From contig CAYXGI010000002.1 in the NCBI GenBank assembly GCA_964464495.1, positions 10,558-74,557 of the forward strand: a stretch of 64,000 bases of DNA. The letters are read 5' to 3'. Both the position numbers and the translations under genes were made by a program. Of this stretch, positions 1,707 through 52,092 are shown in pieces. This stretch comes from an uncultured Phycisphaerales bacterium (lineage in GTDB: Bacteria > Planctomycetota > B15-G4 > CAYZWU01). Position 1 is the stretch's first letter. Each line of letters opens with the position of its first letter. The notes beneath the pieces are model-generated. The model did not search any database. It worked only from the letters and a program-made list of their open reading frames with translations, and was not told where the DNA came from.

Positions 1707-2042
1707 CTTGTTCGTACTCCCGGTGACGCTAACAACCACGGATTGTGTCTCTGCCCCAAACAGGCAGAAAACTTTAATAGACCACAGGTTACATTACGGT
1801 TTTTCGACCGCTCGGACGATAGAATGAGCAGCTCATTGTACGGACTCCAGTTGGTCGATGACAGAGAGATTTTTACGAGACATCGGATTATTCGATTGGT
1901 TCCCATTGATCCGATTGCAGACTCCTTATCTTGATACACTCCCTGGCTGAACGATTGACTTGTACGGTCTTTTGAGTAAAGTTGCGCTTTTGTCCACCGC
2001 CCGGTATTCGGACTTTCGTATATGTGGTCTTTAGAGAGAATC

Positions 2043-4202: not shown

Positions 4203-6227
4203 ATGAATTCCAAATTCACATCGACTCAATTAGTGGTGGCTGTTCTCCTTCTCCTCGGCCTCTTCACGATACTCGGCGGGTGTGGAGAGAGCGCGGAGCA
4301 CAGGGTCATCTTCGTCGCCATCGACGGCATGGATTACAAGCTCACCAGAAAATGGCTCGACGAGGGATTGCTTCCCAACCTGGCCGCCATGAAGAAGGAA
4401 GGCGACTTCCGGTCGATGGGAACGAGCATCCCGCCCGAAAGCCCGGTGGCGTGGTCCAACTTCATCAGCGGACAGAATCCGGGTGGGCACGGGATCTACG
4501 ACTTCCTGCATCACAAATGGGAAAAGGATCCTGAAACCGGAGCCACCCGCCTCATGCCCGTTGATCCGATCGTGGAGACCGAGGATGTGGGGCTCTCTCT
4601 GACCATGTTAGGGCGTTACTTCCCCCTCACCGGCGGAACGCAGATCAACATGCGTCAGGGAACGGCCTTCTGGGAGATACTCGAGGACCACGGCGTCCCG
4701 GCCACGATTTACAAGATTCCCGCCCACTACCCCCCCACCGAGACCGGACAACAGACCATGAGCGGCATGGGTACTCCCGATTTCCAGGGCGGTTACGGGA
4801 CATACTATCTCTACACCGAGGACCAGTTCGCCATCCCTGGAAATGTGACAAAGGGGGTTCTCGTGGCGAACACGATCTACGACAACGTGTTTCGCGATTT
4901 TCTCTACGGTCCGCCGAACGCCAGCATCGCCGTGGAAGAGGGCGAAATCCCCCCGGAAATGAAAGTCCCCTTCTGCGTCTATATCGATCCCGAAAGGCCG
5001 ATCGTCAAGATCGAGATCGGCGAGGACGAAGACGACGCCATTCCGGTCATTCTCGCCGAGGGCGAGTGGAGCGACTTCATCGCCGTTGACTTCGAGGTGA
5101 TCCCTTACGTAACCAATCTTTCGGGCCTTGTGCGATTCTATCTGGCCGAGGTGCGGCCGAATTTCCGGTTATTCGTCGACCCGATCAATATCGATCCTCT
5201 CTCCCCGAGCGCCGAAATCACGACGCCCTCCGGCTGGTCGGCCGAACTCGCCGACAGGTACGGTCTTTTCGAGACAAAAGGCATGCCCGAAAATACGGCG
5301 GCCTTGAAAGACGGCGTCCTCTCTTACGACGAGTACCGCGCCCACTCCATGTTGATCTACGAGAAGCGCAAGGAAATGCTCCACAAGTTCATCGAGGATC
5401 ATGACAGCGGCTTCCTCTTCTACTACTTCTGCAGTATCGACCTCGACCAGCACATGTTCTGGGCGCTCATGGACGAGAAACATCCCTTCCACGACAAGAA
5501 CGAGTCCGATTACAACAAGAACTTCATCAAGACCCTGTATCAGGATATCGACGGCGTCATCGGCGAGGTCCGCCGCAACTTGCGCGAAGGGGACACTCTC
5601 ATCGTCATGTCCGATCATGGATTCGCGCCCTTTTACCGGACCTTCAACCTCAATTCGTGGCTTCTCGAAAAGGGTTACCTCCATCTCAAGGAGGGCGCGG
5701 ACAGGGCCAAGCTCGACGAGCTCGATTTCGACGACGTCGACTGGTCGCGCACCCAGGCATACGGCATCGGTTTCGCGAGCCTCTACCTGAACGTCGTGAA
5801 GCGCGATCCCGAGGGGATCGTGAAGCCGGCAGAGGTGGACAGCCTGGTCGACGAGATCTGCGGCAGGCTGATGACCGAGAAGGATCCCGAAAACGGAGAG
5901 CCGCTTTTTTACACGATGTACAAGGGCCGCGAGGTCTACGACGGAGCGGCGATCGAGAACGCTCCCGATATGGTTGTCGGCTTCTTCAGTGGATACGGTG
6001 TGTCGGACAAGTCCGCGCTGGGCGAGTTCTCGAGCGAGATCCTCCAGGACAACATGAACCCATGGAGCGGCAACCATCTCATGGCCGCCGAGGAGGTCCC
6101 CGGCATCCTCTTTGTAAACAAGAAGATGATCCTCGACGAACCCAAACTTTACGACCTCACCGTCACAATTCTCAAAGAATACGGTGTCGAAAAAACACCC
6201 GAGATGATCGGCAAGCCGATCTGGTAG
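4203..6227 (+). CDS. Second COG3379-like AlkP-superfamily enzyme, predicted lipoprotein
   Basis: Lipobox LGG-C; AIDGMD, SIPPESPVAWSNF, IDLDQH, MSDHG and WSGNH motifs; GAGGAG RBS upstream; paralogous to the preceding gene. Confidence 0.85.
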   Translation: MNSKFTSTQLVVAVLLLLGLFTILGGCGESAEHRVIFVAIDGMDYKLTRKWLDEGLLPNLAAMKKEGDFRSMGTSIPPESPVAWSNFISGQNPGGHGIYDFLHHKWEKDPETGATRLMPVDPIVETEDVGLSLTMLGRYFPLTGGTQINMRQGTAFWEILEDHGVPATIYKIPAHYPPTETGQQTMSGMGTPDFQGGYGTYYLYTEDQFAIPGNVTKGVLVANTIYDNVFRDFLYGPPNASIAVEEGEIPPEMKVPFCVYIDPERPIVKIEIGEDEDDAIPVILAEGEWSDFIAVDFEVIPYVTNLSGLVRFYLAEVRPNFRLFVDPINIDPLSPSAEITTPSGWSAELADRYGLFETKGMPENTAALKDGVLSYDEYRAHSMLIYEKRKEMLHKFIEDHDSGFLFYYFCSIDLDQHMFWALMDEKHPFHDKNESDYNKNFIKTLYQDIDGVIGEVRRNLREGDTLIVMSDHGFAPFYRTFNLNSWLLEKGYLHLKEGADRAKLDELDFDDVDWSRTQAYGIGFASLYLNVVKRDPEGIVKPAEVDSLVDEICGRLMTEKDPENGEPLFYTMYKGREVYDGAAIENAPDMVVGFFSGYGVSDKSALGEFSSEILQDNMNPWSGNHLMAAEEVPGILFVNKKMILDEPKLYDLTVTILKEYGVEKTPEMIGKPIW

Positions 6228-8996: not shown

Positions 8997-9212
8997 GATC
9001 AGACTCTCTCAAATGTTCTTCTGAATCGCGTTTAGGAACCACGAAAATGGAAGGCTCATCATAATTATGATTCGTCGAACTTCAACCTCCCAACCTTGAG
9101 TATTTAGCCGATAAATCTTGTTCGCCCATAAATAGTGCCGAAGCGCGTTGACGATCGAAGCGGGGTTGATTATCGTTCCTCTATCACAGGATGGACTGAA
9201 GAAAGGCTGAGT

Positions 9213-9755
9213 ATGGATCTCAAGATAGTCATCTGCGGAGTGGGCGGCCAAGGTGTGCTCTATTTCGCGAAAAACCTCTATGCCTTGGCGGTTGCGGCTG
9301 GAGCCAGCGTTTTGGGAAGTGAAACACATGGCATGAGCCAGCGCGGGGGCTCGGTCGTCTCTCACGTAAAGATCGGGGATTATTCCTCACCCATGGTTCA
9401 AGCTGGCACGGCCGATATTCTCTTTTCGCTCAGATTCGAGGAGACCTATCCTCATCTCACTTTTCTCAGAAAAGGAGGGACTCTGATCGTCAATTCGTCG
9501 AGCGACCAGGCGATGAAAAACGAGATGGTCGAAGCTCTCGCCAAAAGGGAGGTGAAAATCCACAGGTTCGACGCTTTCTCCCGAGCGACGAAACTCAACG
9601 CACCCGCCTCCGCAAATTTGATCCTTCTGAGCCACTCCGTGAATGAAGGACTGTTGCCTTTCACTATGGCTGATTTGAAAAACGCGGTCGAAACAGTGAC
9701 TGCACGGGCTCGGCTGGAGGCGAGTTTCAGAGCGATCGAGGCCGGGTTGGAGTGA
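9213..9755 (+). CDS. iorB: Indolepyruvate oxidoreductase beta subunit
   Basis: ICGVGGQG...SETHGMSQRGGSVVSHV signature; start set at ATG 9213. Confidence 0.88.
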   Translation: MDLKIVICGVGGQGVLYFAKNLYALAVAAGASVLGSETHGMSQRGGSVVSHVKIGDYSSPMVQAGTADILFSLRFEETYPHLTFLRKGGTLIVNSSSDQAMKNEMVEALAKREVKIHRFDAFSRATKLNAPASANLILLSHSVNEGLLPFTMADLKNAVETVTARARLEASFRAIEAGLE

Positions 9756-23485: not shown

Positions 23486-24790
23486 CTATTTGCGCGGATA
23501 ACACCGGGCAACATGATCCCGCGCTTGTCGCGTCGTTTCGAGCTTTCCCTCGTACTGAAGCTCTGTCACCTCGGCAAGGATCTGTCCCATGAGCGGGCCG
23601 GGCGTATAACCCATGGCAAGCAGATCGCGCCCCATGAGCAACGGTTCCTTGACCGCGGGTTGACGCCCCCACTTGCGTCTCATCAAGGCGATGTATTTGA
23701 TGTTGTCGAGTTTCCCATGGCTCGCGATGCAGTCGGCACGGTGCAGTTCCACATGAGCCGCGGCCACGGGGGATTCGAGGAAGCGGCGCAATTTGGATTC
23801 GCGCATCTTCTGGAGATTGACGAAATGCATGTGGCGCCCTACCAGTTCGACCGTCGCTTTCGTCTCCTTTCCGGAGAGCCTCAAACGCCGGCAGATCCGT
23901 TCGGCCATCGCCGCGCCTTTGGTGTCGTGTCCGTAGAAGCGGATCCTGTCGGTCGAAGACCGTGTCGCCGGCTTCGCCACATCGTGAAGAAGCGCGCCCA
24001 GGGCAAGGGCGAAGTCAGGCTTGCGGAGCGCTTCGAGTACGCGAAAAGTGTGCTCCAGAACATCGCCTTCAGGATGATAGCATTCGTCCTGCGTCACTCC
24101 CTCGCAATCAGCCACCTCGGGCAAGATCCCGCGAAGCAATCCGAGATCGTGCATCATCCGGATTCCGGCCCCCCGTTCGGGGTGAACGAGGATCAGCCGC
24201 AGTTCGTCGGAAATCCGTTCCGCGCTCAGTTCGGTCACCCGATCCGCCGCGTTTCTGATCGCCGCCGCGGTTTTTTCGTGAAGACCGAATCCGAGGGTGG
24301 TCGCGAAGCGAACGGCGCGCAGCAAGCGCAAACGGTCTTCGGAGAAACGTTGCGCCGGATCGCCGATCGTTCTCACAATCCGCCGGGCGATGTCTTTCCG
24401 ACCTCCCACGTAATCGAAGATTTCCCCGTCAAAGGGATCCATCAGGAGCCCGTTGATCGTGAAGTCGCGCCGCGCCACGTCCTGTCTCTCATCATCGGTA
24501 AAGAGGACGCGATCAGGATGACGACCGTCGCTCCCCCCCAGATCCCTGCGAAAGGTGGCGGTCTGATACACCTTTCCGCCCATCCGGACCATGACCACGC
24601 CGAAAGCCGCCCCGACCATGAGTGAGCGGGGAAAGAGCCGGGAGATCTCATCGGGGAGTGCGCTCGTGCAGATGTCGTAGTCCTTGGGCCTCTTTCCCAT
24701 CAGGGCGTCTCTGACGGAGCCGCCCACAAAATAGGCCTTGAATCCAGACTGCCTGAGTCTCTTAATGATTTTTTTAGCGACTGCTTTCAT
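23486..24790 (-). CDS. cca: CCA tRNA nucleotidyltransferase with HD domain
   Basis: VGGSVRD..KDYD, RRDFTING, EDRLRLLRAVRF, ERI..EL, HPEGDV..H, LLHDVAK. Confidence 0.9.
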   Translation of the reverse strand: MKAVAKKIIKRLRQSGFKAYFVGGSVRDALMGKRPKDYDICTSALPDEISRLFPRSLMVGAAFGVVMVRMGGKVYQTATFRRDLGGSDGRHPDRVLFTDDERQDVARRDFTINGLLMDPFDGEIFDYVGGRKDIARRIVRTIGDPAQRFSEDRLRLLRAVRFATTLGFGLHEKTAAAIRNAADRVTELSAERISDELRLILVHPERGAGIRMMHDLGLLRGILPEVADCEGVTQDECYHPEGDVLEHTFRVLEALRKPDFALALGALLHDVAKPATRSSTDRIRFYGHDTKGAAMAERICRRLRLSGKETKATVELVGRHMHFVNLQKMRESKLRRFLESPVAAAHVELHRADCIASHGKLDNIKYIALMRRKWGRQPAVKEPLLMGRDLLAMGYTPGPLMGQILAEVTELQYEGKLETTRQARDHVARCYPRK

Positions 24791-33673: not shown

Positions 33674-34996
33674 TTGGCTTTTCCATCAGAAGCGAAGATC
33701 ATCGAGGACACGATCATCTTTCCCGCGGCCATCGATCCCGACGCGGCAAAGATCGTGAAAAGGCTCAAGAGGTACGGCCATGAAGCCTACCTCGTGGGCG
33801 GCTGTGTGCGCGACCTCCTCCTCGGCGCCATTCCCAAGGACTTCGACGTCTCCACGTCGGCGCGCCCCCGGCAGATCCGCAGACTCTTCCGCAATTCGAA
33901 AATAATCGGAAGGCGCTTCAAGCTGGCCCACATCATGTTTCGCGACAAGGTGATCGAGGTGTCGACTTTCCGGAAACTTCCGCCCGACGAGAATTCGAAA
34001 CATTTCAAGAGCGAGGGCCTGCTCATCGTGCGGGACAATGTCTACGGCGAACCGCGCGATGACGCCTTGCGGCGCGATTTCACGGTGAACTCCCTCTTCT
34101 ACGATCTCGAAAAGGAAGCGGTCATCGATTTCTCCAACGGTTTCGACGACCTCAACAAGCGCCTCCTGATGACGATCGGCGATCCCCACGTCCGGTACTG
34201 CGAAGACCCGATCCGGATACTCCGGGCTGTGAGATTCTCGTGCCGTCTCAAGCTCTGGATCGAACCGGAGAACGCCGTCGCCATGAAGGCCCATGTGGGC
34301 GAACTCCAGAAGAGCGCCCCACCCCGCGTCAAGGAGGAGATCATCCGCCTCCTGGCATGCGGCGCTTCGCGGCAGGCGCTGCACATGATTTTCGATCTCG
34401 GCCTTCTTGGAGTGATTTTTCCCGAGCTCGAATCATCGCTCGACAAGAAAGCGTCCTGGTTCAACAGCGAGCGCACCGGCACGGAGTTCCTCGTCGCCCT
34501 CGGCGCCGCGGTCGATCCTCTCGACCGGGGGCGCCGGCGCTATTCTGATGCCCTCTTTCTGGCGGTCCTCTTCTCCCACCACGTTGGCGTTGCGCTCAAC
34601 GAAGCGCTGTCGAGCGGAGTGGCGATACACGACCGCATCGCGTTCATCGACAATGTCCTGAGGCCGATCGCGATGCGCATGGGCGTCTCGAAAAAAGACC
34701 TGAACAGGATCAAGCACATCATCAATGGTTTTCACCGGTTCGATCGCAAGAAATGGCGCGGCCGTCCCCGTCCCGGGGAATTCGTCGCGCGTGATTATTT
34801 CCGCGAAACCCTCGAGTTCTACAGGTTCGTTGTCGAGGGATTGGGACGCGACAAAAGCGCCTTCCATCGCTGGCTGAACAGATGGAACGAGCAGGACGCT
34901 CCAGACGCCCCCCACAGCCCGATGAAAGAGAAGACCGGACGGAGCCGAAGAAGACGCCGGCGCCGTCCCCGCAGGCCGCGGGTGCAGGACGATTGA
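33674..34996 (+). CDS. pcnB: Poly(A) polymerase I
   Basis: VGGCVRD..KDFD, PAP-type upstream signature IIGRRFKLAHIMF, RRDFTVN, EDPIRILRAVRF and an Arg-rich C-terminus. Confidence 0.88.
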   Translation: MAFPSEAKIIEDTIIFPAAIDPDAAKIVKRLKRYGHEAYLVGGCVRDLLLGAIPKDFDVSTSARPRQIRRLFRNSKIIGRRFKLAHIMFRDKVIEVSTFRKLPPDENSKHFKSEGLLIVRDNVYGEPRDDALRRDFTVNSLFYDLEKEAVIDFSNGFDDLNKRLLMTIGDPHVRYCEDPIRILRAVRFSCRLKLWIEPENAVAMKAHVGELQKSAPPRVKEEIIRLLACGASRQALHMIFDLGLLGVIFPELESSLDKKASWFNSERTGTEFLVALGAAVDPLDRGRRRYSDALFLAVLFSHHVGVALNEALSSGVAIHDRIAFIDNVLRPIAMRMGVSKKDLNRIKHIINGFHRFDRKKWRGRPRPGEFVARDYFRETLEFYRFVVEGLGRDKSAFHRWLNRWNEQDAPDAPHSPMKEKTGRSRRRRRRRPRRPRVQDD

Positions 34997-35003: not shown

Positions 35004-36227
35004 TCAGCGGCGCCTCAGCCGTCTCGGTCTCACTCCTGTCTGCTTCAGCGGTTTCTCGCGGTAGTTGGCGAGAACATACTCCTCCCATTCCCTTTGAAAG
35101 GTGATCACATTGAGGCCGTAGGCTTCCTTGAGAGCGTCACGGCACTCCTTCTTGTCCTTGATCGCCTTCATGAAGAGCTTGAACTTGCCCGGGTCCCTCT
35201 TCTTGAGCAGGAAGTCGACAAAGGACCAGACGGTCTGGTGATCCATGCCGTGGAGAGAGGTCACGCTCTTGTTGATCAACTCGGCGAAGGAGGGAAGCTT
35301 TCCGGCGGCCAGATCGCGCCGCACCTCGTACTCCCAGTCGGTGTTTGAGACCTCCTCCTCCTCGCCCTCCTCGTCGCAGGTGTTGGACGCCCTCTTGAAG
35401 TAATGAACTTCAAAGAAATGAGCCAGCCCCTCGTCGGCCCATCCGGCGGTGGACGCCATCCACTCCATGCGGTAATAGGAGACGTTGAGGAGATGGCTCA
35501 GATGATGAATGAGGTGCTGGTGAAAAAGCTCCTCCTCGGGCATGTTGGCCTTGTCGTAGAAGGAGACGAGGATCGACGGGTTGCCCGGCATCTTGGCCGC
35601 GTTCCAGCAGTTGAGCCCAGTCAGTTCCTTCGCCGCCTTGAAGCTGTGCTTCTGCCTTTCGAAGAGATAGACGTAATGCGTCTTGTTCCGGATCTCCCTC
35701 TCGTCGATCCCGAAGAAATTCATGAAATCGTTGTAGAAGGTCTCGAGTCTCTCGGCGTAGAGGTGCATCGCCTCGTGCATCCTGTAAGTCTTCTTCTCCT
35801 TCGTGACGATCTTGGGAATATCCCAGGCGATGACGAAATGATCTGTTTCCACGTAGAGGAGTTTCGTGTTGAGGAAGGAGTCTTTTTGTCTGCGCCGTTC
35901 GAGCCACTTCGTCTTCTTGGCGACGATGGCGTCGAACTGGCGCCTCGCTGCCTCGGCGAGCGCCGGATTGCGGCATCTCTCGCACGGATACCAGGCGTTT
36001 CCATGGCCCTTCTTGTCCTGTTCAAAGATGTATGAACAGTGGACGACCTTCGCTTCCAGGGCGGCGAGCGCGGGCGTCAGGTACTTGTTTTCCACCTTAC
36101 CCGTCGTCTTGCACTTGGAACAGCGCGGTCCGTCGGCGTCCTGCGCTCGGGTCGTGTCATGGAAGGTCAGAGAAAAAACGAAGACGATGAGCAATCCCCA
36201 TGCGAGACAGTGTCCGCTCCGCACCAT
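35004..36227 (-). CDS. Secreted hypothetical protein: CxxC...CxxC Zn-binding motif plus peptidase MA-like domain
   Basis: GAGGAGG RBS; signal peptide; CSKC and CERC; IHHLSH..W.DEGLA.FFE gluzincin-like segment. Confidence 0.7.
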   Translation of the reverse strand: MVRSGHCLAWGLLIVFVFSLTFHDTTRAQDADGPRCSKCKTTGKVENKYLTPALAALEAKVVHCSYIFEQDKKGHGNAWYPCERCRNPALAEAARRQFDAIVAKKTKWLERRRQKDSFLNTKLLYVETDHFVIAWDIPKIVTKEKKTYRMHEAMHLYAERLETFYNDFMNFFGIDEREIRNKTHYVYLFERQKHSFKAAKELTGLNCWNAAKMPGNPSILVSFYDKANMPEEELFHQHLIHHLSHLLNVSYYRMEWMASTAGWADEGLAHFFEVHYFKRASNTCDEEGEEEEVSNTDWEYEVRRDLAAGKLPSFAELINKSVTSLHGMDHQTVWSFVDFLLKKRDPGKFKLFMKAIKDKKECRDALKEAYGLNVITFQREWEEYVLANYREKPLKQTGVRPRRLRRR

Positions 36228-36391
36228 GATGTCCCTCCTCGCTGTGACGAATCGTTCTTGCAGAGTTCGTCGGGCTGGCGGTAATTGCCGGGATGGATGC
36301 ACTCTGGCCGGGCTCGAGAGCCGTTCATTAGGCTATCGCGCATGGAAAAGAACTACAACACTTTTGTCCTTTGCCGCCGCGTGGGGGCCTG

Positions 36392-37711
36392 TCAGATCTG
36401 AATCCCCCCGGCCAGTTTGATCATCTCGGCCCTGATTGTGGCCATGAGCCTGTCCACCTCGATGAGGGCTTCCCTCGCCGCCTCCAGTTCGAGGGCGATT
36501 TCCAAGCTCCTGGTAATGGGGGTGCGTCCCGTCTCGACGAGGCCCTCGACGAGACCATGTTGCTTGGCCAGCGAGGGGATGATCGAGTTCGTGTAGAGAT
36601 CGCGGCTCGCGGCGAGAGCCAGCCAGCGTTCGCGATTGCCGAACCACTCATCGAGCGCGCGCGCCGCGGCGCGCTCGAGGGATGCTTCGGCGCCGCGAAT
36701 ATCGGCCTCGGCACTCATGATCGCGCCCTGCTTGCGGTCGACGAGGGGGAGTGGAATCTGAATGAAGGCGCCCATAAAATCATCGCGCTCGGCCATGCCC
36801 TCGGCGCCGCGCGAGTATCCGACCCCCACCGTGATGTCGGTCCACTTGCCTGACTCGGCAAGCCGGAGATTAGCCCGCGCCGCTTCGATCTCGCCGTCGA
36901 GACGATTCAGTTCGGGACTGCGCGTCAAGATCGACGCTGCGCCCTCGTCCCAGGACGGTGGTTCCCACGCCGGCGCGCCGTGGCGGCATTGAAGGATCGT
37001 CCCCGCGGGGAGTCCGAGAAGCCCCTCGAGTTCTGCAATGAATTTTTTCTCGTCGCCCCGGTGCTTGAGAAGCCGATCGGTTGCCTTGGCGACAGCCACC
37101 TGGAAAGTGATGAGATCTTGTTGGGGAAGCCGTCCCTTTCGATTCATCTCCTCGGCGATGGCCAGAAGGCGCATTCGCAGCTTTTCGGCCCGCTCATTGC
37201 TCTCGGACTTGTCCCGCGCATGGGCTGCATCATAAAAGAGCGTCATTGCCTCAGCGGCCAGATCGCTGCGGACCTGAAAGTAGGCGGCCTCGGCCGCGTT
37301 CCGCCGGGCCTCGGCCAGATCGACCCGCGCGCCGGCCTTGCCGGCCGTCTCGATCCGCTGCGCGATGCGCACCTTGTTGCGGGCGTTTCCGAATCCCATA
37401 TCGTCGATGGGCATCATCTCGGTTTCGAGAGTCAAAACCGGATTGGGCATGTACGATCCCTGAATCAGGTTGCCTGTTTCGCGGGCGATCTTTTCCCGCG
37501 CCTCCTTCAGCGCCGGTGCCTGTTCGAGCAGATCCAGTACCATGGTTGCTTCGAAAACAGACGGATCCCTCTCGATGATTTTCCGAACCGCGGGCCGCGA
37601 CAGCGGAGACGGGGCGCCGGGATCGACGTGACGCGGACCGGGATTCGATTCAGGAAGGTCGGCGCAACCGGCCAGGAAAAGAGTGGTCAGTAAAAAAAAT
37701 CCGCGCACCAT
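36392..37711 (-). CDS. TolC/CzcC-like outer-membrane efflux lipoprotein
   Basis: Lipobox LAG-C; PNPVL, QRIETAGKAGAR, IQIPLPLVDRKQG OEP repeats; last gene of the exporter operon. Confidence 0.9.
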   Translation of the reverse strand: MVRGFFLLTTLFLAGCADLPESNPGPRHVDPGAPSPLSRPAVRKIIERDPSVFEATMVLDLLEQAPALKEAREKIARETGNLIQGSYMPNPVLTLETEMMPIDDMGFGNARNKVRIAQRIETAGKAGARVDLAEARRNAAEAAYFQVRSDLAAEAMTLFYDAAHARDKSESNERAEKLRMRLLAIAEEMNRKGRLPQQDLITFQVAVAKATDRLLKHRGDEKKFIAELEGLLGLPAGTILQCRHGAPAWEPPSWDEGAASILTRSPELNRLDGEIEAARANLRLAESGKWTDITVGVGYSRGAEGMAERDDFMGAFIQIPLPLVDRKQGAIMSAEADIRGAEASLERAAARALDEWFGNRERWLALAASRDLYTNSIIPSLAKQHGLVEGLVETGRTPITRSLEIALELEAAREALIEVDRLMATIRAEMIKLAGGIQI

Positions 37712-37720
37712 GTTTAGCTC

Positions 37721-38923
37721 CTACTGGTACCTGACAGCGTCGACCATCCGGAGTCGCAAGGCCCTGTAAGCTGGCATGAAAGCACCGATCAGGCCGATCA
37801 GCACTGTCGTTCCCAACGCCCAGGCGACAACGGTAGCTTCGACTTCCACGCGAAAGGCCGCCATGGGAATCTTGATCGGGAGCCCGTTGGCGAGAAATCC
37901 AAGGCCACACCCGAGGATCCCCGCCGTAAAGGTGATCAGGAGGGATTCCGTCATGATCCCCATGAGCACGGCTTTCTTTGAAAAGCCGATGACCTGAAGA
38001 GTCCCAATCTCTCGAACGCGCCCCATGACGGCGGTGTACATCGTGTTCATTCCGGCCACCACCCCCCCCACGACAATGATCATGGCGAGGGCGTGGGCGA
38101 ACTGGCGAAAGAAATCGAAACCCTCGGCATAGTCGGCAAAGTACTCCTGCTCGGGAAAGGCCTTGACCCCGAACTGCTCGTCCGTGCTGAGCCGGTCGCA
38201 GAGCTCGGCCATCCGGCTCGGGTCTTTGAGCTTGATCTTCATGAACGAATAGTCCTGGCGCTTGAGGTAGAGCCGGAGGTCCTGTTCGTGCGTCCAGAGC
38301 TCGCTCTCGTTGATCGTTCCCGCTGCCTCGAAGGCGCCCACCACGGTCCACGACTTGTTGAGAAAGTAGAGTTCCCGGCCGATCGACAGATCGGTCTGAT
38401 CGACGCCGATTCGCGTGCCGGCGAGCTTGCCCACGAGCAGTTCGCGCATACCCTTGCGCGGCAGCCGTCCGTCGATGATGCGCACATGGCTGTTCAAGCC
38501 GAGGCAGATCGCCGGGTCGATGCCGTGAATGATTCCCCGCTGCTGGCCGCGCCGGAATTTTTCCGCCTCCTTGACCTCCACGTTGAGGCCGATGTAGGCC
38601 TCCTTGGAAATCAACGGCACCTGGGTCTCACCCCACGTCCCCGACGTGGTGATTGCCACGGCGTCGTCGTAGAGCTTGTTCTGGATCAGCTCGCAGTCCT
38701 GATCGGAGATCGACGAGAGCACGAAGGTCTGCGCTTTCTTGGAGATGATGATCATGTTGTCCGGATCGCCCGTTTCGCGGAAGGTCGCCGCCATGGAGCT
38801 GCTGAAGGCGAGCACGAAGACGAGAGCCGACACGACCAGCGCCAGACCGATGGTGGTGAGCAGTGTGCGCGTGCGGCGTCGAAAGAGATTTCGAATGCTG
38901 TAACGCAAGGGAAGCCGTGCCAT
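37721..38923 (-). CDS. MacB/FtsX-like ABC permease (second subunit)
   Basis: YSIRNLFRRRTRTLLT, periplasmic domain, NTMYTAVMGRVREIGTLQVIGF, four TM helices. Confidence 0.93.
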   Translation of the reverse strand: MARLPLRYSIRNLFRRRTRTLLTTIGLALVVSALVFVLAFSSSMAATFRETGDPDNMIIISKKAQTFVLSSISDQDCELIQNKLYDDAVAITTSGTWGETQVPLISKEAYIGLNVEVKEAEKFRRGQQRGIIHGIDPAICLGLNSHVRIIDGRLPRKGMRELLVGKLAGTRIGVDQTDLSIGRELYFLNKSWTVVGAFEAAGTINESELWTHEQDLRLYLKRQDYSFMKIKLKDPSRMAELCDRLSTDEQFGVKAFPEQEYFADYAEGFDFFRQFAHALAMIIVVGGVVAGMNTMYTAVMGRVREIGTLQVIGFSKKAVLMGIMTESLLITFTAGILGCGLGFLANGLPIKIPMAAFRVEVEATVVAWALGTTVLIGLIGAFMPAYRALRLRMVDAVRYQ

Positions 38924-38927
38924 ATGA

Positions 38928-40091
38928 TTATTCCACGTTTCTCAAAGACGTGACGATGTTGAGCCGCGATGCGTTGAAAGCCGGGATCAAACCTCCGGCA
39001 AAACCAACGACCAGAGAAGCGCCGATCCCGAGACCGAGGATGACGGGCCGCATGATGATCGGGATCGACACGCCGCGAAGGGCCAGTTCCTGATTGGAGA
39101 AGGAGATGATCACGAAGGCGGCCACACAGCCGAGTGCTCCTCCGAACAGACTGAGCAAGACCGACTCTGCGAGCACGAGTCTCAAAACGCGGGGCCGTCC
39201 AAATCCCATGGCTCTCAAGATGCCGATCTCCTGCGATCTGTCGTAGGTCGACATGCTGATCGTGTTGGCGATGCAAAGAAAGATGACGAGCGCCGAAAAG
39301 ACGATCACGTACCCCGCGTACTTGAGCATGTCGTCGAGATCGTCGAGAGCCTGATCGAGGGCGACCTGAGCCGGTTCGGTGTGCGTCTTGATCGGAAAGT
39401 CGAGGTTGTCGATCGCGGTGCACACTCTCTCGGCGTCCTCGCGATCGGCGATCTTGACGTAGATCTGGTGGGAAACGCCCCGCGACCCGTCGACGTCCTG
39501 CAAGAAGACCCTGTCCGCCAGGATCACGTTGCGAAACGCTGGATCTCGCGGGGTAAAGGCGCTTGCCATGAAAAGGCTCAGCCCCTCGAAATCGGCCATG
39601 GCGAATTCGCCATCTTCTTTCCAGACGTACTGGTCACTGTATTTGGTGACAATATCGATGCCCAGCAAAGCGCCGTTGCGCTTGGAGCAAAATTTCTCCC
39701 ACGCCCCGGGTTCCAGATCGAACTCGATCATGTCCCTCAGGTCGTCTTTATCGATTCCTGCGATCTTGACCAGACCGCCACCCGACGAGGCTCAGTGATT
39801 CATCTTGAAGAAGATCGGCGCGGCATTGACCACGCCGGGGACTTCACGCTCGATACGGCGCGCCATGTCCTCGTCGCCGGGCATTGAACTCTTGGTCGGT
39901 CAGTAGACGTCTTCCTCGTTGACCACGAGGATCGTGCTCGCGGCGCCGGCGACCATCTGATTGCGGCTGTCGAAGATCGTCGTCAGGTAGGTAACGATGA
40001 AGACCGCCACCCCCACTCCGAAAATCGTCAGCATGGTCCTCACCGGGTTGCGCCACACGTTGCGGATGACGTAACGCCAGAATTTGAACAT
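38928..40091 (-). CDS. MacB/FtsX-like ABC permease with two in-frame TGA codons, candidate double selenoprotein (U64, U100), 387 aa
   Basis: ORF-track pieces 39900..40091 and 38928..39731 are in one frame, interrupted only by TGA at 39900-39902 and 39792-39794. Joined: ..NEEDVY-U-PTKSSMP..FFKMNH-U-ASSGGGLV..; hairpins follow both TGAs. Confidence 0.85.
39760..39778 (-). promoter_or_regulatory. Candidate bacterial SECIS for TGA 39792-39794
   Basis: Minus strand GCGGTCT-GGTCA-AGATCGC: 7-bp stem (one G-U); GG-initiated loop at +21. Confidence 0.7.
39865..39884 (-). promoter_or_regulatory. Candidate bacterial SECIS for TGA 39900-39902
   Basis: Minus strand ATGCCC-GGCGACGA-GGACAT: 5 bp with one mismatch; GG-initiated loop at +22. 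Weak stem. Confidence 0.5.
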
Positions 40092-40166
40092 GGCTTTGCC
40101 TTTCGTTTTTCCCGGCAGCGATTTGTTCGACTCGGCCGCCGGAGCCCATCGATGGTTCGTTGAGGA

Positions 40167-40859
40167 TCACGGGGCTTTGACTTCCTCTTTCAAAACACCC
40201 TTGTCGAGGTAGAGGATCCGGTCCGCGTAGGAGGCGGCGCGCGCATCGTGGGTCACCATGACCAGGGTCTTTCCAAATTTCTGATTGAGCTCTTTCAGAA
40301 GGTCGAGAATCTCCGTCTCGCTCTCCGCATCGAGATCGCCCGTCGGCTCATCGGCGATGATCACCTTGGGATCGGTCACGATGGCGCGCGCGATGGCCAC
40401 CCGCTGTTCCTGCCCGCCCGACAACTGCCGCGGATAGTGATCGGCGCGCTCGGCGATTCCGACAGCTTTCAGTGCCGTATCGGTGTGCGTCTTGCGCTCT
40501 GCGCGCGACAGGGGCAGGAGCAAGAGGGGCAGTTCCACATTCTCCCGCGCCGTGAGAACGGGAACGAGGTTGTAGAGCTGGAAGATGTAGCCGACGGAAC
40601 GGGTCCGCCACTGAGAGAGTTCGCTGTCGCTCATGGAGGAGAGGTTCTCGCCTGCCACGGTCACCGAGCCGTTCGTCGGCGTGTCGATGCCGGCGATCAG
40701 GTTGAGAAGCGTTGTCTTTCCCGATCCCGACGGTCCCATGAGAGCAAGGAATTCGCCCTCCGCCACGTCGACGTTTACGCCCCGGAGGGGGCGGATCTCT
40801 TCGCTGCCGCGGCGGAAGACCTTTGTCAGGTTCTCAGTCCTGACCATCGTTTGAGTCAT
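40167..40859 (-). CDS. ABC transporter ATP-binding protein (MacB/LolD-type)
   Basis: [31 protein letters not shown]. Confidence 0.96.
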
Positions 40860-41958
40860 TGTTTTTCCTCATGAAGCGGATTCGGGCGATCATTTCTGGG
40901 TAGAGGTTTTCCGAGGGGGCGTGGATCTTGACCTTGACCTGGATCGTGTTCTTCTTGAAGTCGGCCATCGGTTCGAGGCGTATCACTCGCCCCTCGTAGG
41001 CGCGGTCGAGTTCGGCATCGGTGAAGACCTCCACCGTCTGTCCCACGAAGACACCGCCGATGTTTTCCTGGCGGACGTCGACGCGCACCTGGAGATCGTT
41101 GGGATCATAGAGGCTGACGATTCGCGGATTCTGCGCCGCGATCCATGTGCCGGGCGTGACGAAACGTTCGAGGACGGCGCCGTCGAAGGGGCTCGTCACC
41201 GTCGCGTAGGAGAGCTGATTGCGCGCCAACTCGACATCGGCGAGGGATCGGTTGTAATCCGCCTCTGCGGCCTCGATGTCCTCGACGCGACTCCCCTCCT
41301 CTTTGAGAAGCAGTTCCTGCTCGAGCGCGTTGCGCCGCGCCAGCGACGTTTTGCAGGCGGCCTCGTCCCTGTCGAGATCCTCTCTGCTGACCGCACCCGA
41401 TGAAAGAAGAGACCGCGTGCGCTCGAGGATCTTCTTCTTGAGGGTCACGTCCGAGTCGAGCGCTGCCAGGTCTGCCCGGGCCTTCTCGACTTCCTGAACG
41501 CGGAAGCCCGCCTTGAGCCGCTCCATGTTGGCGCGTGCAGATCCGGCTTCCGCCTCGGCCCGCCTGAGGGCGTCGGTCAGATCCTTCTCGTAGAGCCGGG
41601 CAATGACATCGCCTTTCTTGACACGCGATCCCTCGAGCACGAGGAGCTCGTCGAGACGTCCCGGAATAAGGCTGCTCACCACCACGGGATGGTAAGAGGG
41701 GACCTCGATCCAGCCGCCCTCGGTGAACGACTCGGGTTCAGGCTCCTCCGGTTCGGGGTTGACAGGATTGTTCCCCACGGCGGCGACCGGGTCCTTTTGC
41801 ACGGTCTCCTCATTTGACAGGGGCCAGAAATCGGCAGCCAGATAGCCGACGACCAGCCCGGCCGGAAAGAGCAGGATCACGATCAAAACCGGAAAGCGCG
41901 CCTTTTTCCCGGTCGTGCCGTGGTTGATCTTGAGATCGTTGAGGTCGACTTCGCTCAT
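40834..41958 (-). CDS. Efflux membrane-fusion (periplasmic adaptor) protein
   Basis: N-terminal TM; lipoyl halves (VKKGDVIARL, VTSPFDGAV); long alpha-hairpin; start set at ATG 41958. Confidence 0.92.
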   Translation of the reverse strand: MSEVDLNDLKINHGTTGKKARFPVLIVILLFPAGLVVGYLAADFWPLSNEETVQKDPVAAVGNNPVNPEPEEPEPESFTEGGWIEVPSYHPVVVSSLIPGRLDELLVLEGSRVKKGDVIARLYEKDLTDALRRAEAEAGSARANMERLKAGFRVQEVEKARADLAALDSDVTLKKKILERTRSLLSSGAVSREDLDRDEAACKTSLARRNALEQELLLKEEGSRVEDIEAAEADYNRSLADVELARNQLSYATVTSPFDGAVLERFVTPGTWIAAQNPRIVSLYDPNDLQVRVDVRQENIGGVFVGQTVEVFTDAELDRAYEGRVIRLEPMADFKKNTIQVKVKIHAPSENLYPEMIARIRFMRKNNDSNDGQD

Positions 41959-42156
41959 GACTGTTGACTTCCTACCAAAATAGCAGGGTATTCTATTAGC
42001 CTCTAATTCTAAAAACAACTTCTATAACTTATTAACCACGTAAATATCCTGAAGCAGTCAAGCGCTTCGCCATGTGGGGTGCGCAATTGTGCTCGTCATC
42101 GCGAAAAGCTAAGGTGTTGTTACCGAGAGAAATCAGCAGCATGGAGACCATTGACA

Positions 42157-43983
42157 ATGACTCGAATTCCTGGAACCTCGAATAATACCTGTCTCGTCTC
42201 CTTGTTGGCAGTTCTTTTCCTGTCTCTTCTGATGGAGAGTCTCCCCGCGCCGGAGGAGGACGACTCTGCCCGACCTTTCTTCCACAACGTGGCAACCGAG
42301 ACCGGCGTGGCTCGACATCCCGCTCAGCGCGTCGCTTTCGTCGACCTCAACGGCGACCACTACCTCGATTGCGTGGTAGGGTGCATCTGGAAAGACAATT
42401 CAACCCATTGCTACTTGAATCGCGCGGCTGATAAGAAGGACTCTCTTCCGATTTTTTCCGATTTCACCGCGGAGTCGCGGATCGCGTGGGATGCGAAAAA
42501 AAAATCCAATCGCTCGGCGTCTGTCATGGTCTTTGCCGACGTGGACAACGACGGAGACGTTGACGCTTTCTCCGGCATCGATTGTTCAGCAGGCGCCAAA
42601 GAAAAGGGCAGCGACATTCAAACAGTCAGCGCGATCCTGCTCAACGACGGCGAGGGGCTATTCGTTCTCGGCACGAAGTCTGGTGTAGGCGAACACCCGG
42701 CAACGACCTGTGCGGCCACCTTCTTCGATGGGGACAACGATGGGCTCATCGATCTCTTCGTGGGCAACTGGTACAGGGAGTACGGGTCATCGCTCGACAG
42801 CTTTCAGGATCGGCTCTACAAGGGGATCGGCAAGGGACGATTCAAGGAGATCACCGAGAAAGCAGGTATCGAGACCGCACAAACCGCGGGGATGCGCGAA
42901 AGCTCGAAGCCGGTCTACGGCGCCGGCCACTGCGATTACAACAACGACGGTCTTCAGGATATCCTCGTCTGCGTTTACGGCAGGCAGTGGAACTTCCTCT
43001 GGAAAAACAAGGGCAAGGGCATCTTCACCGACGTTGCCGCCGCGACCGGATTTGACGGAGACACGATCACCCACGGCCGCTACCCCGAATCGATCAAGGA
43101 GTACTTCAGAACCCAGCGCGGCATCGAACGCGAAGACGAGTCGCCCTTTCGGTCGAATGGCAACACCTTCAGCGTGGCGCCCGCCGACTTCGATTGCGAC
43201 GGAGACATCGATCTCTATCTCGGCGAGATCACCCACGCCTGGGCGGGCGACTCATCGGACCGATCGAGCCTTCTCGTCAATCAGGGGGCCGAGATGGGAT
43301 TCATCTTCGAACGGCATGCCGACGCACTCAGGCGCGAACACACATCGCCCGACAAGTGGAACCAGGGCGACATGCACGTGGCATGGATCGATTTCGACAA
43401 CGATGGGCTCCAGGACCTGCTCGTCTCGTCAGGCGACTACCCCGACGGACAGTACCTCCGGCTTTTCGCGCAGCGCGACGATCACTCCTTCGAGGACATC
43501 ACCGGAGCGTGCGGATTCGACTGGGAAAGTTCATCGGCCATCTCGGTGGGCGACTTCGACCGTGACGGCGACGAGGATATCCTTGCCGGACAATCATGGA
43601 TGCGCATGCCGCCTGAGCGCCGCAAGGGGGACTATCCGGCTCCGGCTCTCTTCCGAAACGATGTGGGCAACAGGAACAACTGGATCACCATCCAGCTCAG
43701 GGGAAAGGGCAAAGGCGGCGCCAATGCGCTCGCCATCGGAGCACGGATCGTGGTCGAGGCCGGCGGCCGCGTTCAGATGCGCGAGATCCGCGGCGGCTGC
43801 GGCCACGCGGGCCAGTACGATCCTCCCGAGGCTCATTTCGGCCTCGCCAGGGCGGAGTCGATCGATCGAATCACCGTACACTGGCCAAACAGAAAGCAGA
43901 CCGTCACCACAGTGCAGAATATCGAACCAAACCGCTTGGTGCGCATCGCCGAAACCGGCAATCTGACAGAGCTCCTGCCCTGA
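42157..43983 (+). CDS. CRTAC1-like FG-GAP repeat protein with ASPIC/UnbV domain
   Basis: D.NGD/D.DNDG..D repeats; LFRND.GN.NNW..IQL.G..AIGARI.V..HFGL. Confidence 0.92.
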   Translation: MTRIPGTSNNTCLVSLLAVLFLSLLMESLPAPEEDDSARPFFHNVATETGVARHPAQRVAFVDLNGDHYLDCVVGCIWKDNSTHCYLNRAADKKDSLPIFSDFTAESRIAWDAKKKSNRSASVMVFADVDNDGDVDAFSGIDCSAGAKEKGSDIQTVSAILLNDGEGLFVLGTKSGVGEHPATTCAATFFDGDNDGLIDLFVGNWYREYGSSLDSFQDRLYKGIGKGRFKEITEKAGIETAQTAGMRESSKPVYGAGHCDYNNDGLQDILVCVYGRQWNFLWKNKGKGIFTDVAAATGFDGDTITHGRYPESIKEYFRTQRGIEREDESPFRSNGNTFSVAPADFDCDGDIDLYLGEITHAWAGDSSDRSSLLVNQGAEMGFIFERHADALRREHTSPDKWNQGDMHVAWIDFDNDGLQDLLVSSGDYPDGQYLRLFAQRDDHSFEDITGACGFDWESSSAISVGDFDRDGDEDILAGQSWMRMPPERRKGDYPAPALFRNDVGNRNNWITIQLRGKGKGGANALAIGARIVVEAGGRVQMREIRGGCGHAGQYDPPEAHFGLARAESIDRITVHWPNRKQTVTTVQNIEPNRLVRIAETGNLTELLP

Positions 43984-49304: not shown

Positions 49305-49721
49305 CTAATCTCCGATGATTTTGACGAGCACCCGTTTACGGCGCCGACCGTCGAATTCACCGTAGAAGATTCGCTCCCACGTTCCGAAATCGAGTCGCCC
49401 GCCGGTGATGGCCACGACCACATCGCGGCCCATGACGCTCCGCTTGAGATGGGCGTCGGCATTGTCCTCACCCACGTTGTGGGCATAAGACGCCACCGGC
49501 TCGTGGGGGGCGAGATGTTCGAGCCACTTTTCCAGATCCTGGTGCAAGCCGGACTCGTCGTCATTGATGAACACACTCGCCGTGATGTGCATGGCGTTGA
49601 CCAGACAGAGCCCCTCGCGCACACCGCTCTGACGGACGAGGTCTTCGACGTCATCGGTGATGTTGATGAACCCCCGGCGGGACGGCACTTCGAACCAGAG
49701 GTACTCGGTGAGTGATTTCAC
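49305..49721 (-). CDS. YjbQ/UPF0047-family protein (copy 1)
   Basis: [41 protein letters not shown]. Confidence 0.92.
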
Positions 49722-49732: not shown

Positions 49733-51694
49733 TCAGTGAGATTCTTCGTCTTTTTGAAAGGCATACTTTTCATCCATGGCGGATCTGAGCAGGGTGATGA
49801 GATCGGGATCCTCCTCAGTGCCGCTTGTCCAGACAGCGTGCGCCTTGACCGACGTTTTCAGGCATTCGATGGAAGGCGCATAGAATCCTCTCGGTTGCAC
49901 CACGATCGCTCCCGCACCTCCGGAAAAACAGTCGGCCCAGCCGCCTATCCCCGACAAACCGGCGACGAAGGAAATCTCGGGATCGATGAGAGCGGCGTAG
50001 AGAGCGGCCTGTGCGGCGCACGGACCACGACCGATCACTCCTACCACGGGCACGTGGGCTCCCACCACGGGTACATGGCGTTTCAAAATGGCCGCTGCGC
50101 GAGCAACGTCCCATCCCTGGGCAAAGGGAACCGCCGTGCCGAGGTAGGCCATGAGCCGCCCATCTATCTTCTCGAACTCCCCTGTTCCGCGCACGTCGAT
50201 GGCGAGGCACTCGATGCCGGCGGCGAGAAGCGCGTCGACCGGCATCGATCGCATCGCGTCATGCTTGCCTCCATCAGAGATGAGCACGACAGCGCCGAGC
50301 GTCTCTCCGGGAGGAAGTCTCACGATTCCCGGGATCGTCAAGCCCGGTTCCGATTCGAAACAGAGCGCCTCGCCGGACTCTTCCAACGGGGAGCGCACTA
50401 TCTTCGAGGGATCGATCTCCCCGTCGGGAAGACCGCCATTGAGAGCAACGACAGCGTCAAAGAAGAGTTCTCCTTCCGAACAGCTCTGCGCCGCCGCGAT
50501 CTGAGCCATGGTAAGAAGCCGATCGGGCGGTTCGGGAAGACAGAGGTACTCGCGCGCGTCGACGGACGCTGTGGCGATCTCCCCCTCGGGAACAGGCTCC
50601 CCAACGCCAACGCCCTTGAGGTGTTTGTTGAAAAATCCCAGCGCCGCCTCGCGCATGGCGCGGTTGTAGTCATGGCCGCTTTCGAAGATTTGCCAGCGCG
50701 CGTTATGCCTCGCATTGAAGAGAGACCAGATCTTTTCAATCTTTTCTCCGGTCCGCCGCGTACCGTCAGCCGGAAACTCCGGATCGTTGCTCGCGCCAAT
50801 GACGAACAATGGTGCCGGAGCACGGATCGCCAGGACGTCGGAACGGTCACCGACCTGGAGGACGCCGGGAACATGATTGCACGCACAGCCATTGTGGGGA
50901 TTCACTTCCATACTGGTGGCATAGCAGACCGGCACGGCACAGGTGAATCGCTCGTCGGCGGCGAAAGCGTAGAGCGTGGCGAGCCCACCGCCCGAAGCCC
51001 CGGTGAGGCCCACACGGGAGAGATCCGCCTCGGGCCGCGTGGCGAGATAGTCGAGGCCGCGCATCAGATCCCAGACATAGACGGTCGTGGCGTTCGTTGC
51101 GCCCTGGATGAGGGCGAAGTCGAAGTGACTTCCCGCCCATCGCCGTTCGATGAGCGCATCTCGTTCGAAGCTCTCTCCCGGTGAATCGACGACGAGGACC
51201 ACGTATCCGGCACGAGCCTGGGCGATGGCGCGCTTCTGAACACGCGGTTCCATCTTCTTGTCGCGCCAGTGACCGTGCGGATTGACAATGACAGGAAGCG
51301 GATGCTCGACGGCGGCCAGAGGCAAATAAAGATGGGCGGTGACCGGAAATCGGGGCCGGCTCTCGAAGACGATTTTCTCCACACGATAGCCATCGCCTTG
51401 GATCACACCGGTCACCCGGGCGTTGAGGGGAGTTCGATCCGGGAGCGGATCGAGACCGAGGCAGCGCATCAATTGCTTCTTCTGCGCCGGCCGTTGCCTC
51501 TCAAACGCCTCCCGTGTCGACGGAATGGGACGAGCCGCGGCTGCCTTGGCTTTCTTCTCGAGGAAGGACTGTAACATGGCTGGTGCCTTGCCGCCGAGCA
51601 CGGTGACGTCCGTCTCAGCCTGGCCCGCCTCGTCTTCCGTCGTGATCGGGCCTCCGGCAAAGAGAAGCAGCAAGAGCAGCGCGCCCGCTTTCAT
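49733..51694 (-). CDS. Secreted acetylxylan-esterase/dienelactone-hydrolase-like alpha/beta hydrolase
   Basis: [35 protein letters not shown] nucleophile elbow, GHDYN; second degenerate hydrolase domain. Confidence 0.88.
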
Positions 51695-52092
51695 CCCGCC
51701 ACCACCTTGACCAGCACCTTGCGCGTACGGGGCCCGTCAAAATCGCAGAAGTAGACACCCTGCCAGGTGCCGAGCCGCATCCGGCCTTCCTCGACCGGGA
51801 TAACCGCTGTCGCCCCCATGAGGGACGCTTTCACATGGGCGGCACTGTTTCCCTCGGAGTGGGCATACCCCCCCTCCCAGGGAACAATGCGGTCGAGCAC
51901 GTTGATGATGTCGTGCTGAACCGACGGATCGGCATTCTCGTTGATCGTCACGCCCGCCGTGGTGTGCGGCACGTAGACGTAGCACAGACCGCTCTCCACA
52001 CCGCTCGCAGCCACCACCGCGCCGACCTGAGCGCTGATGTCGACAAAATCGGTACGGCCCCCCGTGCGGATCGAAAGACGCTGGGAGATCAT
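51691..52092 (-). CDS. YjbQ/UPF0047-family protein (copy 2)
   Basis: PHTTAGVTINENADPSV, EGNSAAHVKASLMG, LGTWQGVYFCDFDGPR. Confidence 0.93.
   Translation of the reverse strand: MISQRLSIRTGGRTDFVDISAQVGAVVAASGVESGLCYVYVPHTTAGVTINENADPSVQHDIINVLDRIVPWEGGYAHSEGNSAAHVKASLMGATAVIPVEEGRMRLGTWQGVYFCDFDGPRTRKVLVKVVAG

Follow-up and report, generated by a model that had tools for sequence, protein, structure and literature searches.

This study concerns a predicted selenoprotein transporter encoded in a 64,000-nucleotide stretch of DNA, referred to below as the window, from an uncultured Phycisphaerales bacterium of the Planctomycetota (GenBank assembly GCA_964464495.1, contig CAYXGI010000002.1). On the minus strand of the window, within an operon of the kind that encodes MacAB–TolC-like tripartite exporters, lies a permease gene (here permease U) interrupted by two in-frame TGA codons. 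The initial annotation of the sequence proposed that both encode selenocysteine (Sec) in the periplasmic domain of the permease, a proposal now borne out by the presence of both TGAs in 23/23 orthologues, by purifying selection, by constraint on the downstream RNA and by homologues with cysteine in the same places. Taken as a whole, these observations are best explained, in our judgement probably correctly, by a functional selenoprotein gene in which both UGAs are read as Sec, placing a chalcogen pair in an exporter permease; translation of both UGAs as Sec, considered by itself, is highly likely. The genes very probably represent a genuine and essentially undescribed selenoprotein family.

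A permease reading frame interrupted by two TGA codons

The permease U frame runs on the minus strand from 40091 to 38928 and comprises 387 codons, beginning MFKFWRYVIRNVWRNPVRT. Retranslation agrees with the first reading of the sequence in finding a single frame that is broken at two points only, both TGA, and in the motifs that surround them:

39900–39902, minus strand: TGA codon 64, predicted Sec, followed in every case by CC (UGA-CC), motif DVY-U-PTKSSMP; TGA in 23/23 orthologues
39792–39794, minus strand: TGA codon 100, predicted Sec, motif KMNH-U-ASSGGGLVKIAGI (MNH-U-ASSGGG); TGA in 23/23 orthologues

The read-through product matches the Pfam families FtsX (67.9 bits, C-terminal) and MacB_PCD (27.8 bits), both above cutoff. 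The MacB_PCD match covers residues 19–152 at the N-terminal end, and both TGAs therefore lie after the first transmembrane helix (TM1), in the extracytoplasmic domain. Together with the model of a homologue described below, the Pfam matches give the layout of a type VII permease, that is, TM1, a large extracytoplasmic MacB_PCD and a C-terminal FtsX domain with three transmembrane helices. TGA is the commonest ordinary stop codon in the window, ending 31 of the 50 best open reading frames (ORFs), from which it follows that the genetic code has not been reassigned; code reassignment was rejected on this ground.

Both TGA codons are conserved in a gene under purifying selection

Permease U was compared with 22 orthologous genes (36–93% identity), making 23 genes in all. 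Nineteen of the 22 (46–93% identity) were found in genome and metagenome DNA collections and come from Phycisphaerales/Planctomycetota metagenome-assembled genomes and metagenomes, whilst the other three form a distant clade (36–41% identity), with one gene on locus L025 and two tandem copies on locus L027. TGA occupies both positions in all 23 genes, never TAA or TAG, and no gene contains a further stop. The second TGA is found at codon 99 in one orthologue, owing to a one-codon deletion, and at codon 100 otherwise. In a search of ~5.8 billion predicted proteins, the 24 closest relatives (39–92% identity) are all C-terminal fragments of 240–289 amino acids that start past the second TGA, so that every close relative is interrupted alike; the best full-length relatives in the same search are ~30% identical to permease U and none exceeds 31%.

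The exact window sequence recurs in independent assemblies of different samples (JGI 3300009008 and Logan SRR8062346), where gene calling breaks the frame into pieces of 63, 30 and 267 amino acids; both TGAs are present in these assemblies, rather than the TGC or TGT that would have betrayed an assembly error. Pairwise ratios of non-synonymous to synonymous substitution rates (dN/dS) are 0.39 for codons 1–63, 0.51 for codons 65–99 and 0.37 from codon 101 to the end. The in-frame UGAs conserved in 23/23 genes are thus flanked, as in selenoprotein genes, by sequence under purifying selection (dN/dS 0.37–0.51), and this includes the segment between the two TGAs, which had been described as reading like normal protein. 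Scattered disabling mutations, which would have pointed to a decaying gene, are not seen: none of the 23 orthologues has another stop. The 23/23 conservation of TGA, the identical independent assemblies and dN/dS values below 1 together make readings of the locus as a pseudogene, an assembly error or a split gene untenable, and the first two of these were rejected.

Termination followed by re-initiation was also rejected: no start codon follows the first TGA, and none follows the second in the window's subclade. In a sister subclade, an ATG lies directly 3′ of the second TGA (TGAATG; 12/20 close orthologues, e.g. L004:6301–6303), where the window's subclade has GCN, and this explains the fragments that gene callers start at ‘MSSGGGLV’.

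Cysteine-pair relatives and selenocysteine/cysteine hybrids

The first protein search also returned a full-length match, P0029, with Cys at both aligned columns. A search seeded with P0029 gave 3740 matches at E ≤ 1e-10 among the candidates scored, largely from Pirellulales such as Blastopirellula marina and Aureliella. The family represented by P0029 and by P0198 of B. marina carries K[FY]-C-P[AG]TS and FTNN-C-RASL in 120/120 sampled members, and an exhaustive HMMER search of 1.84 billion cluster representatives, with P0198 as query, found Cys at both positions (C/C) in 59 representatives at 50% clustering, the pair persisting to ~26% identity. A subfamily of just this kind had been put forward, almost to the letter, in the initial annotation. 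When the residues aligned to positions 64 and 100 were tabulated, the closest families showed Cys or conserved TGA; in FtsX families further off, the pair columns are filled by V/Y, N/V and the like. The two Cys are gained or lost jointly, with one full-length exception only; P0283 was uninformative, the gene being cut by a contig end.

Several cluster representatives end just ahead of the second Cys, and the three that could be checked on DNA proved to be hybrids, in which Sec occupies the first position and Cys the second (U/C):

L028:1485–2627: U/C hybrid, NRF-U-YATSRLP ... NN-C-RAS
L031:947–2089: U/C hybrid, NRY-U-PSKS ... NS-C-ATN
L032:194–1342: U/C hybrid, HW-U-PPRS ... SE-C-KAT

All three are annotated as a fragment of ~63–65 amino acids followed by one of ~300 amino acids, and the order of the two residues is the same in each (3/3). 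In a rough neighbour-joining tree, built with no support values, the genes with Sec at both positions (U/U) form one clade inside the Cys-pair superfamily and the three U/C genes fall at three separate places. Judged by these sequences, the family presents a C/C, U/C, U/U series in which Sec appears to have entered first at the first position. Cys homologues aligned to the UGA, a further mark of selenoprotein genes, are therefore found for both sites, in the C/C family and in the U/C hybrids.

Candidate SECIS elements downstream of the TGA codons

A Sec insertion sequence (SECIS) was taken to require an apical loop 16–37 nt from the UGA with a G in the first two loop bases. The initial annotation had placed a hairpin after each TGA, and the candidates are as follows:

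39760–39778, minus strand: candidate SECIS 2, GCGGUCU[GGUCA]AGAUCGC, 7-bp helix, loop starting 20 nt after the UGA
39865–39884, minus strand: candidate SECIS 1, AUGCCCG[GCGA]CG(A)GG(A)CAU, 7 bp with two bulges, the minimum-free-energy and centroid element

The claim stands for the second TGA, where the hairpin exists and is conserved at the nucleotide level, albeit with an energy that is not unusual. The string GGCGGTCT[G/C]GT[C/G]AAGATCG recurs without change, at third codon positions too, in 20/20 close orthologues, and the consensus folds as GCGGUCU / AGAUCGY around a five-base loop, SGUSA. On the hairpins, a Gly (GGC), a second Gly (GGT), a Lys (AAG), an Ile (ATC) and Pro71 (CCC) are each encoded by the one codon in 20/20 sequences, whereas other Gly and Pro columns use 3–4 codons. 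Over 23 sequences the SECIS 2 helix is 97% paired, compared with 30–44% for slid controls, and its substitutions are G-C to G-U changes together with one compensatory change from C-G to G-C (in L027a, one of the L027 genes). Third-position entropy places the most constrained seven-codon windows of the gene at codons 104–111 (SECIS 2), then 94–101, then 70–77 (SECIS 1).

The hairpin after the first TGA is, in the window, weak and no better than shuffled sequence, and this part of the claim is less strong than it was put. It does share the core CCCG..CG.GG with a strong hairpin in the sister subclade (12 sequences), in which a perfect GC-rich helix of 8–9 bp, AUCCCCGG-GGA-CCGGGGAU, follows the first TGA and ranks in the top 1–4% of control positions in 11/12 sequences, the twelfth being too short to scan. 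Strong hairpins after the first TGA are also found in L025, in L027a and in the U/C genes L028 and L032, the two U/C forms standing at the top 2% and 0.5%. As far as the sequences allow a judgement, SECIS 2 is well supported and SECIS 1 weak in the window's own subclade.

Selenocysteine decoding in related organisms

Locus L027, which carries two U/U permeases, has a selD gene, identified by TIGR00476 (353 bits; cutoff, 125), which lies 3 kb downstream of the operon. This selD has its own in-frame TGA inside the profile match (...ASCAG-U-AGKLE...), at what we take, by analogy with E. coli SelD, to be the catalytic Cys/Sec position, and the L027 organism thus evidently decodes Sec. The two tandem U/U genes (L027:5384–7864) stand ahead of the Cys-less partner permease, selD occupies L027:12400–13524, and a gene for a hybrid-cluster protein is found at the end of the locus. 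Used as a query, the L027 SelD gave no taxon-named Phycisphaerales matches and was of no help on the trait in this lineage. Complete Sec machinery has been reported in several Planctomycetes (Kim et al. 2016; PMC4807772). The window contains no tRNA gene and no Rfam match; no other selenoprotein gene was found in it, the scan for in-frame TGAs being noisy in GC-rich DNA.

The exporter operon and the fold of the permease

Permease U is the third gene of a tightly packed, five-gene minus-strand cassette with the order membrane fusion protein (MFP), ATP-binding cassette (ABC) ATPase, permease U, permease 2 and outer-membrane protein (OMP), resembling MacAB–TolC:

40834–42018, minus strand: MFP (HlyD-type periplasmic adaptor), 394 amino acids from TTG; an ATG at 41958 was used in the first reading
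40167–40859, minus strand: ABC ATPase, a separate polypeptide of 230 amino acids; Pfam ABC_tran, 129 bits
38928–40091, minus strand: permease U, FtsX/MacB-type, 387 codons, predicted Sec64 and Sec100; from Pfam and orthologues
37721–38923, minus strand: permease 2, FtsX/MacB_PCD, uninterrupted, 400 amino acids, the Cys-less partner; from Pfam, syntenic
36392–37711, minus strand: TolC-like outer-membrane factor, 439 amino acids; Pfam OEP, 90.4 bits, in two stretches

The description of the locus as a MacAB–TolC-like exporter with four other intact genes holds, the frames of all four being uninterrupted. The MFP matches Pfam HlyD_D23, HlyD_3 and Biotin_lipoyl_2 as well as NCBIfam RND_mfp (122.6 bits against a cutoff of 94.9). 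The best NCBIfam matches of the ATPase are LolD, DarD, DevA and the MacB nucleotide-binding domain (NBD), each under its own cutoff, and the matches of the OMP to NCBIfam TolC and IhpA are weak. Neither permease reaches the cutoff of any curated NCBIfam model, with MacB, LolC/E, DevC and FtsX far under threshold, and a conserved periplasmic Cys was looked for in permease 2 and not found. The gene order adaptor–ATPase–permease U–permease 2–OEP is kept in every locus with enough flanking sequence, and an adaptor and a TolC-family outer-membrane factor are encoded with the transporter, as in MacAB–TolC-type tripartite pumps.

An AlphaFold2 model of the Cys homologue P0198, made from a 98-sequence alignment, has a mean pLDDT (predicted local distance difference test) of 87.3 and matches LolCDE, Streptococcus pneumoniae Spr0694-5, MacB, HrtB and YbbP in Foldseek. 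In this model, Cys65 lies in a loop after strand 55–60 and Cys98 in a loop after strand 85–95, loops that correspond in the model to the C-terminal ends of two strands of the first beta-alpha-beta unit. Both strand ends in such a motif face the same sheet edge, from which we infer that the two residues of the pair are close in space.

Possible functions of the pair and alternative explanations

Several results weigh against the presence of a functional Sec pair in permease U. Candidate SECIS 1 is weak in the window (~-5.5 kcal/mol, z = +0.89 against shuffled sequence), and in a bSECIS-like scan 63% of control positions match or beat it; across the eight sequences of the window's subclade, 45–73% of controls equal SECIS 1 in 7/8, the figure being 26% for L003. 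The folding energy of SECIS 2 is within the gene background (4–37% of controls; window z = -0.87). Shuffle z-scores, rank among all in-gene windows and the bSECIS-like scan alike failed to separate the window hairpins from their GC-rich background, and it is therefore the position, loop composition and synonymous-site conservation of the hairpins, and not their stability, that carry the RNA argument. No selA, selB or selD is present among the ~50 ORFs of the window, and no selC was found there either, so that Sec decoding by the host is something we infer. Both residues of the pair are in lower-confidence parts of the P0198 model (block pLDDT 74–80), and the operon has, in the window and related loci, no conserved neighbour that would supply a redox partner, a metal regulator or a substrate.

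On the mechanism that we propose, the gene would be functional and SelB would decode both UGAs as Sec, guided by the hairpins that start ~13–20 nt downstream. The product would be one half of a heterodimeric type VII (MacB/LolCE-fold) ABC permease, which would assemble with the Cys-less permease 2, the separate ATPase, the MFP and the TolC-like channel into an envelope-spanning exporter. Sec64 and Sec100 would sit in the periplasmic loops that leave the two strands of the first beta-alpha-beta unit (the Porter subdomain), one after each strand, and act as a unit, closable to a diselenide (a selenylsulfide in the U/C and a disulfide in the C/C relatives), with position 64 perhaps the more reactive partner. 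The pair might then either lock or gate the moving periplasmic domain according to redox state, or briefly hold a thiophilic substrate before its expulsion through the channel.

Three observations favour a cooperating chalcogen pair: the two positions are strictly co-inherited, U/C hybrids exist, and Sec invariably comes first in them. That the pair forms a natural reversible diselenide on a moving periplasmic domain, serving a redox-gated mechanotransmission pump or the covalent or thiophilic capture of cargo, is put forward tentatively. If true, a reversible diselenide would be a first for ABC exporters, and among very few natural diselenides and extracytoplasmic bacterial selenoproteins.

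The same strict co-inheritance would be expected of bonded partners in a purely structural cross-link, in which Sec replaced Cys in anaerobic lineages since a diselenide or selenylsulfide forms and persists at redox potentials too low for a disulfide. It is established chemistry, and speaks for such a staple, that diselenides are reduced at much lower potentials than disulfides; the distribution of the forms speaks for it as well: the U/U contigs carry anaerobe-type genes (pyruvate:ferredoxin oxidoreductase-like genes in the window, the hybrid-cluster protein on L027), and the C/C forms are largely from aerobic Pirellulales, B. marina and Aureliella among them. There is, however, little precedent for purely structural Sec, and the asymmetry of the U/C genes (Sec first in 3/3) is typical of catalytic and resolving pairs, not of a symmetric staple. 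We regard a purely structural role as rather unlikely.

In line with a second suggestion of the initial annotation, the pair might instead bind a soft metal or metalloid (Hg, As, Cd, Cu(I), Ag), capturing ions in the periplasm and handing them over to the TolC-like channel of a resistance exporter. With a chalcogen ligand on each of two adjacent loops, the pair would be able to chelate a thiophilic ion; MacB-type pumps draw their substrates from the periplasm; most of the selenoprotein transporters on record have a link to metals (SaoP, SaoB, MerT-like proteins and the SO_0444 Cu/Zn exporter); and the best NCBIfam match of the OMP is a divalent-metal exporter subunit, IhpA, although far under cutoff (30 against 650 bits). 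Nevertheless, the conserved neighbours of the operon, in the window and related loci, include no regulator of the MerR, ArsR or CsoR type, no metallochaperone and no other metal-related gene, the motifs are not known metal motifs, the pair being 35 residues apart, unlike CxxC or CU, and the very large C/C family, widespread in aerobic Pirellulales (the 3740 matches at E ≤ 1e-10), fits housekeeping better than resistance. A metal site is accordingly an unlikely function for the pair.

Finally, it is very improbable that the UGAs do not encode Sec at all and mark conserved split genes or pseudogene fragments, or are decoded as Cys or Trp with the help of a suppressor or recoding tRNA. In favour of such a reading, UGA-C is a leaky stop context, the first hairpin in the window is weak, the 64-kb window lacks all four sel genes and the ATG directly after the second TGA in 12/20 orthologues could in principle permit re-initiation. 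Against it, 23/23 genes have TGA at these codons, to the exclusion of TAA and TAG, and carry no further lesions, no start follows the first TGA anywhere or the second in the window's subclade, a 63-amino-acid TM1 fragment and a 35-amino-acid peptide would be meaningless as parts of a MacB fold, the residue aligned to each site is an invariant Cys, synonymous-site constraint falls exactly on the downstream hairpins, a Sec-type selD adjoins one operon (L027) and UGA is the main ordinary stop in the window.

Other features of the window

Divergent from the operon is a gene of the FG-GAP / ASPIC-UnbV family (42079–43983, plus strand), whose ORF is uninterrupted, with further stops beyond the terminal TGA. 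This family is listed among split selenoprotein candidates in other Planctomycetes (Kim et al. 2016; PMC4807772); the neighbour in the window was rejected as a selenoprotein because its ORF is uninterrupted. On the other side, 90 nt downstream of the OMP gene and on the same strand, is a 432-amino-acid ORF (35004–36302, minus strand) with no Pfam or NCBIfam match; of the other loci, only L003 and L006 have a homologue (64–65% identity), which lies 1–2 kb downstream of their OMP gene.

Two paralogous type I phosphodiesterase/nucleotide pyrophosphatase genes (2022–4184 and 4203–6227, plus strand) lie in one frame with a TGA and six codons between them and are probably ordinary tandem paralogues. 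Pyruvate/2-oxoacid:ferredoxin oxidoreductase-type genes at 77–1210 (TPP_enzyme_C with 4Fe–4S domains) and 9135–9755 (POR gamma), both on the plus strand, suggest an anaerobic or facultative host. The window also contains two UPF0047 (YjbQ-like) paralogues (49305–49721 and 51691–52092, minus strand) either side of a peptidase S9 gene, and two paralogues of the PolyA_pol/CCA-adding nucleotidyltransferase type (23486–24790, minus strand; 33674–34996, plus strand).

Relation to known selenoproteins and exporters

Selenoproteins are nearly all soluble redox enzymes, and Sec-bearing membrane transporters number a handful; here, a whole clade of Planctomycetota pumps would be obligately dependent on Sec at two sites. 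The C/C, U/C, U/U series points to a reactive pair of residues in a type VII ABC transporter, within a periplasmic domain whose handling of substrates is still poorly understood, and makes it practicable to test why Sec, outside the cytoplasm, takes the place of Cys. The family also suffers from systematic mis-annotation, every close homologue in databases being called as fragments of 63, 30 and ~265 amino acids.

Full-text literature searches pairing selenocysteine with MacB or FtsX returned nothing relevant, and NCBIfam has no FtsX/MacB-type selenoprotein member. The initial annotation knew of no description of such a system, which is correct in that there is no proper description of the family, but overlooks a single line in Table S9 of Kim et al. 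(2016; PMC4807772), where a planctomycete split ABC efflux gene of the SalY (FtsX/MacB) type with a bSECIS match is listed as a possible selenoprotein. That entry comes with no aligned residue, family analysis or mention in the text; it is split into two genes, implying one TGA, and is likened to permease U by type only.

The sole ABC permease in the table of prokaryotic selenoprotein families in a 2026 review, which includes no FtsX/MacB-type protein (PMC13188914), is SaoP, and according to Haft (bioRxiv 10.1101/2022.07.06.499078) no ABC permease selenoprotein was known before it. SaoP resembles permease U in having Sec in the membrane subunit of an ABC transporter, in occurring mostly as Sec with few Cys forms, and in that a diselenide or metal binding between two Sec has been proposed. 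It differs in being a type I (MetI-like) permease for binding-protein-dependent uptake in Firmicutes, is unrelated in fold, direction and phylum, and has a single Sec, at the gate, in each chain of its homodimer; its earlier characterisation as an importer permease of a different class agrees with Haft's paper. Permease U has an FtsX/MacB fold and no NCBIfam match to SaoP (NF040733).

With MacAB–TolC (MacB of E. coli, Acinetobacter baumannii and Aggregatibacter actinomycetemcomitans; 5NIK, 5GKO, 5LIL) the system shares the FtsX fold with four transmembrane helices, the large MacB_PCD between TM1 and TM2, and a HlyD-type adaptor and TolC-like OEP encoded alongside; MacB matches the P0198 model with a Foldseek E of about 1e-15 and a profile E of 2e-42. 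MacB proper, however, is a homodimer with a fused NBD, whereas the window system has a separate ATPase and two permease genes, presumably for a heterodimer, and scores 44.7 bits against the 966 required by the equivalog model NF007826. Nor does MacB have a counterpart of the Sec/Cys pair, Gly and Met/Arg-region residues being aligned there in 5GKO.

LolCDE shares the arrangement of two paralogous FtsX/MacB_PCD permeases with a separate ATPase; its chains are the top Foldseek matches of the P0198 model, and the window ATPase scores best against LolD. It differs in having neither adaptor nor outer-membrane channel, genes for both of which are present in the window operon, and LolC and LolE lack the chalcogen pair; the scores fall short as well (lolCE, 33 against 362 bits; LolD, 233 against 308). 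Scores for the DevBCA glycolipid exporter are similarly below threshold (DevC, 21.9 against 290 bits; DevB, 68.6 against 129; DevA, 220.6 against 295.8).

The eukaryotic selenoprotein SelL, which has a UxxU motif, is like permease U in carrying two Sec in one protein and in the proposal of a diselenide between them, but its Sec are adjacent, in a thioredoxin-fold redox motif, and the protein is cytosolic and of unrelated fold. Closest of all is the Cys-pair family (e.g. P0198 of B. marina), which has the same fold, the same two positions and the shared motifs [FYW]-C/U-P-x-[TS]S-x-[LIM]P and N-x-C/U-x-[AST][SN], and which is likewise accompanied by a Cys-less partner permease, an adaptor and an ATPase. 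It differs from permease U in having Cys for Sec and in overall sequence (~28–31% identity), and its locus L023 differs from the window operon in gene order and in having no adjacent OEP gene.

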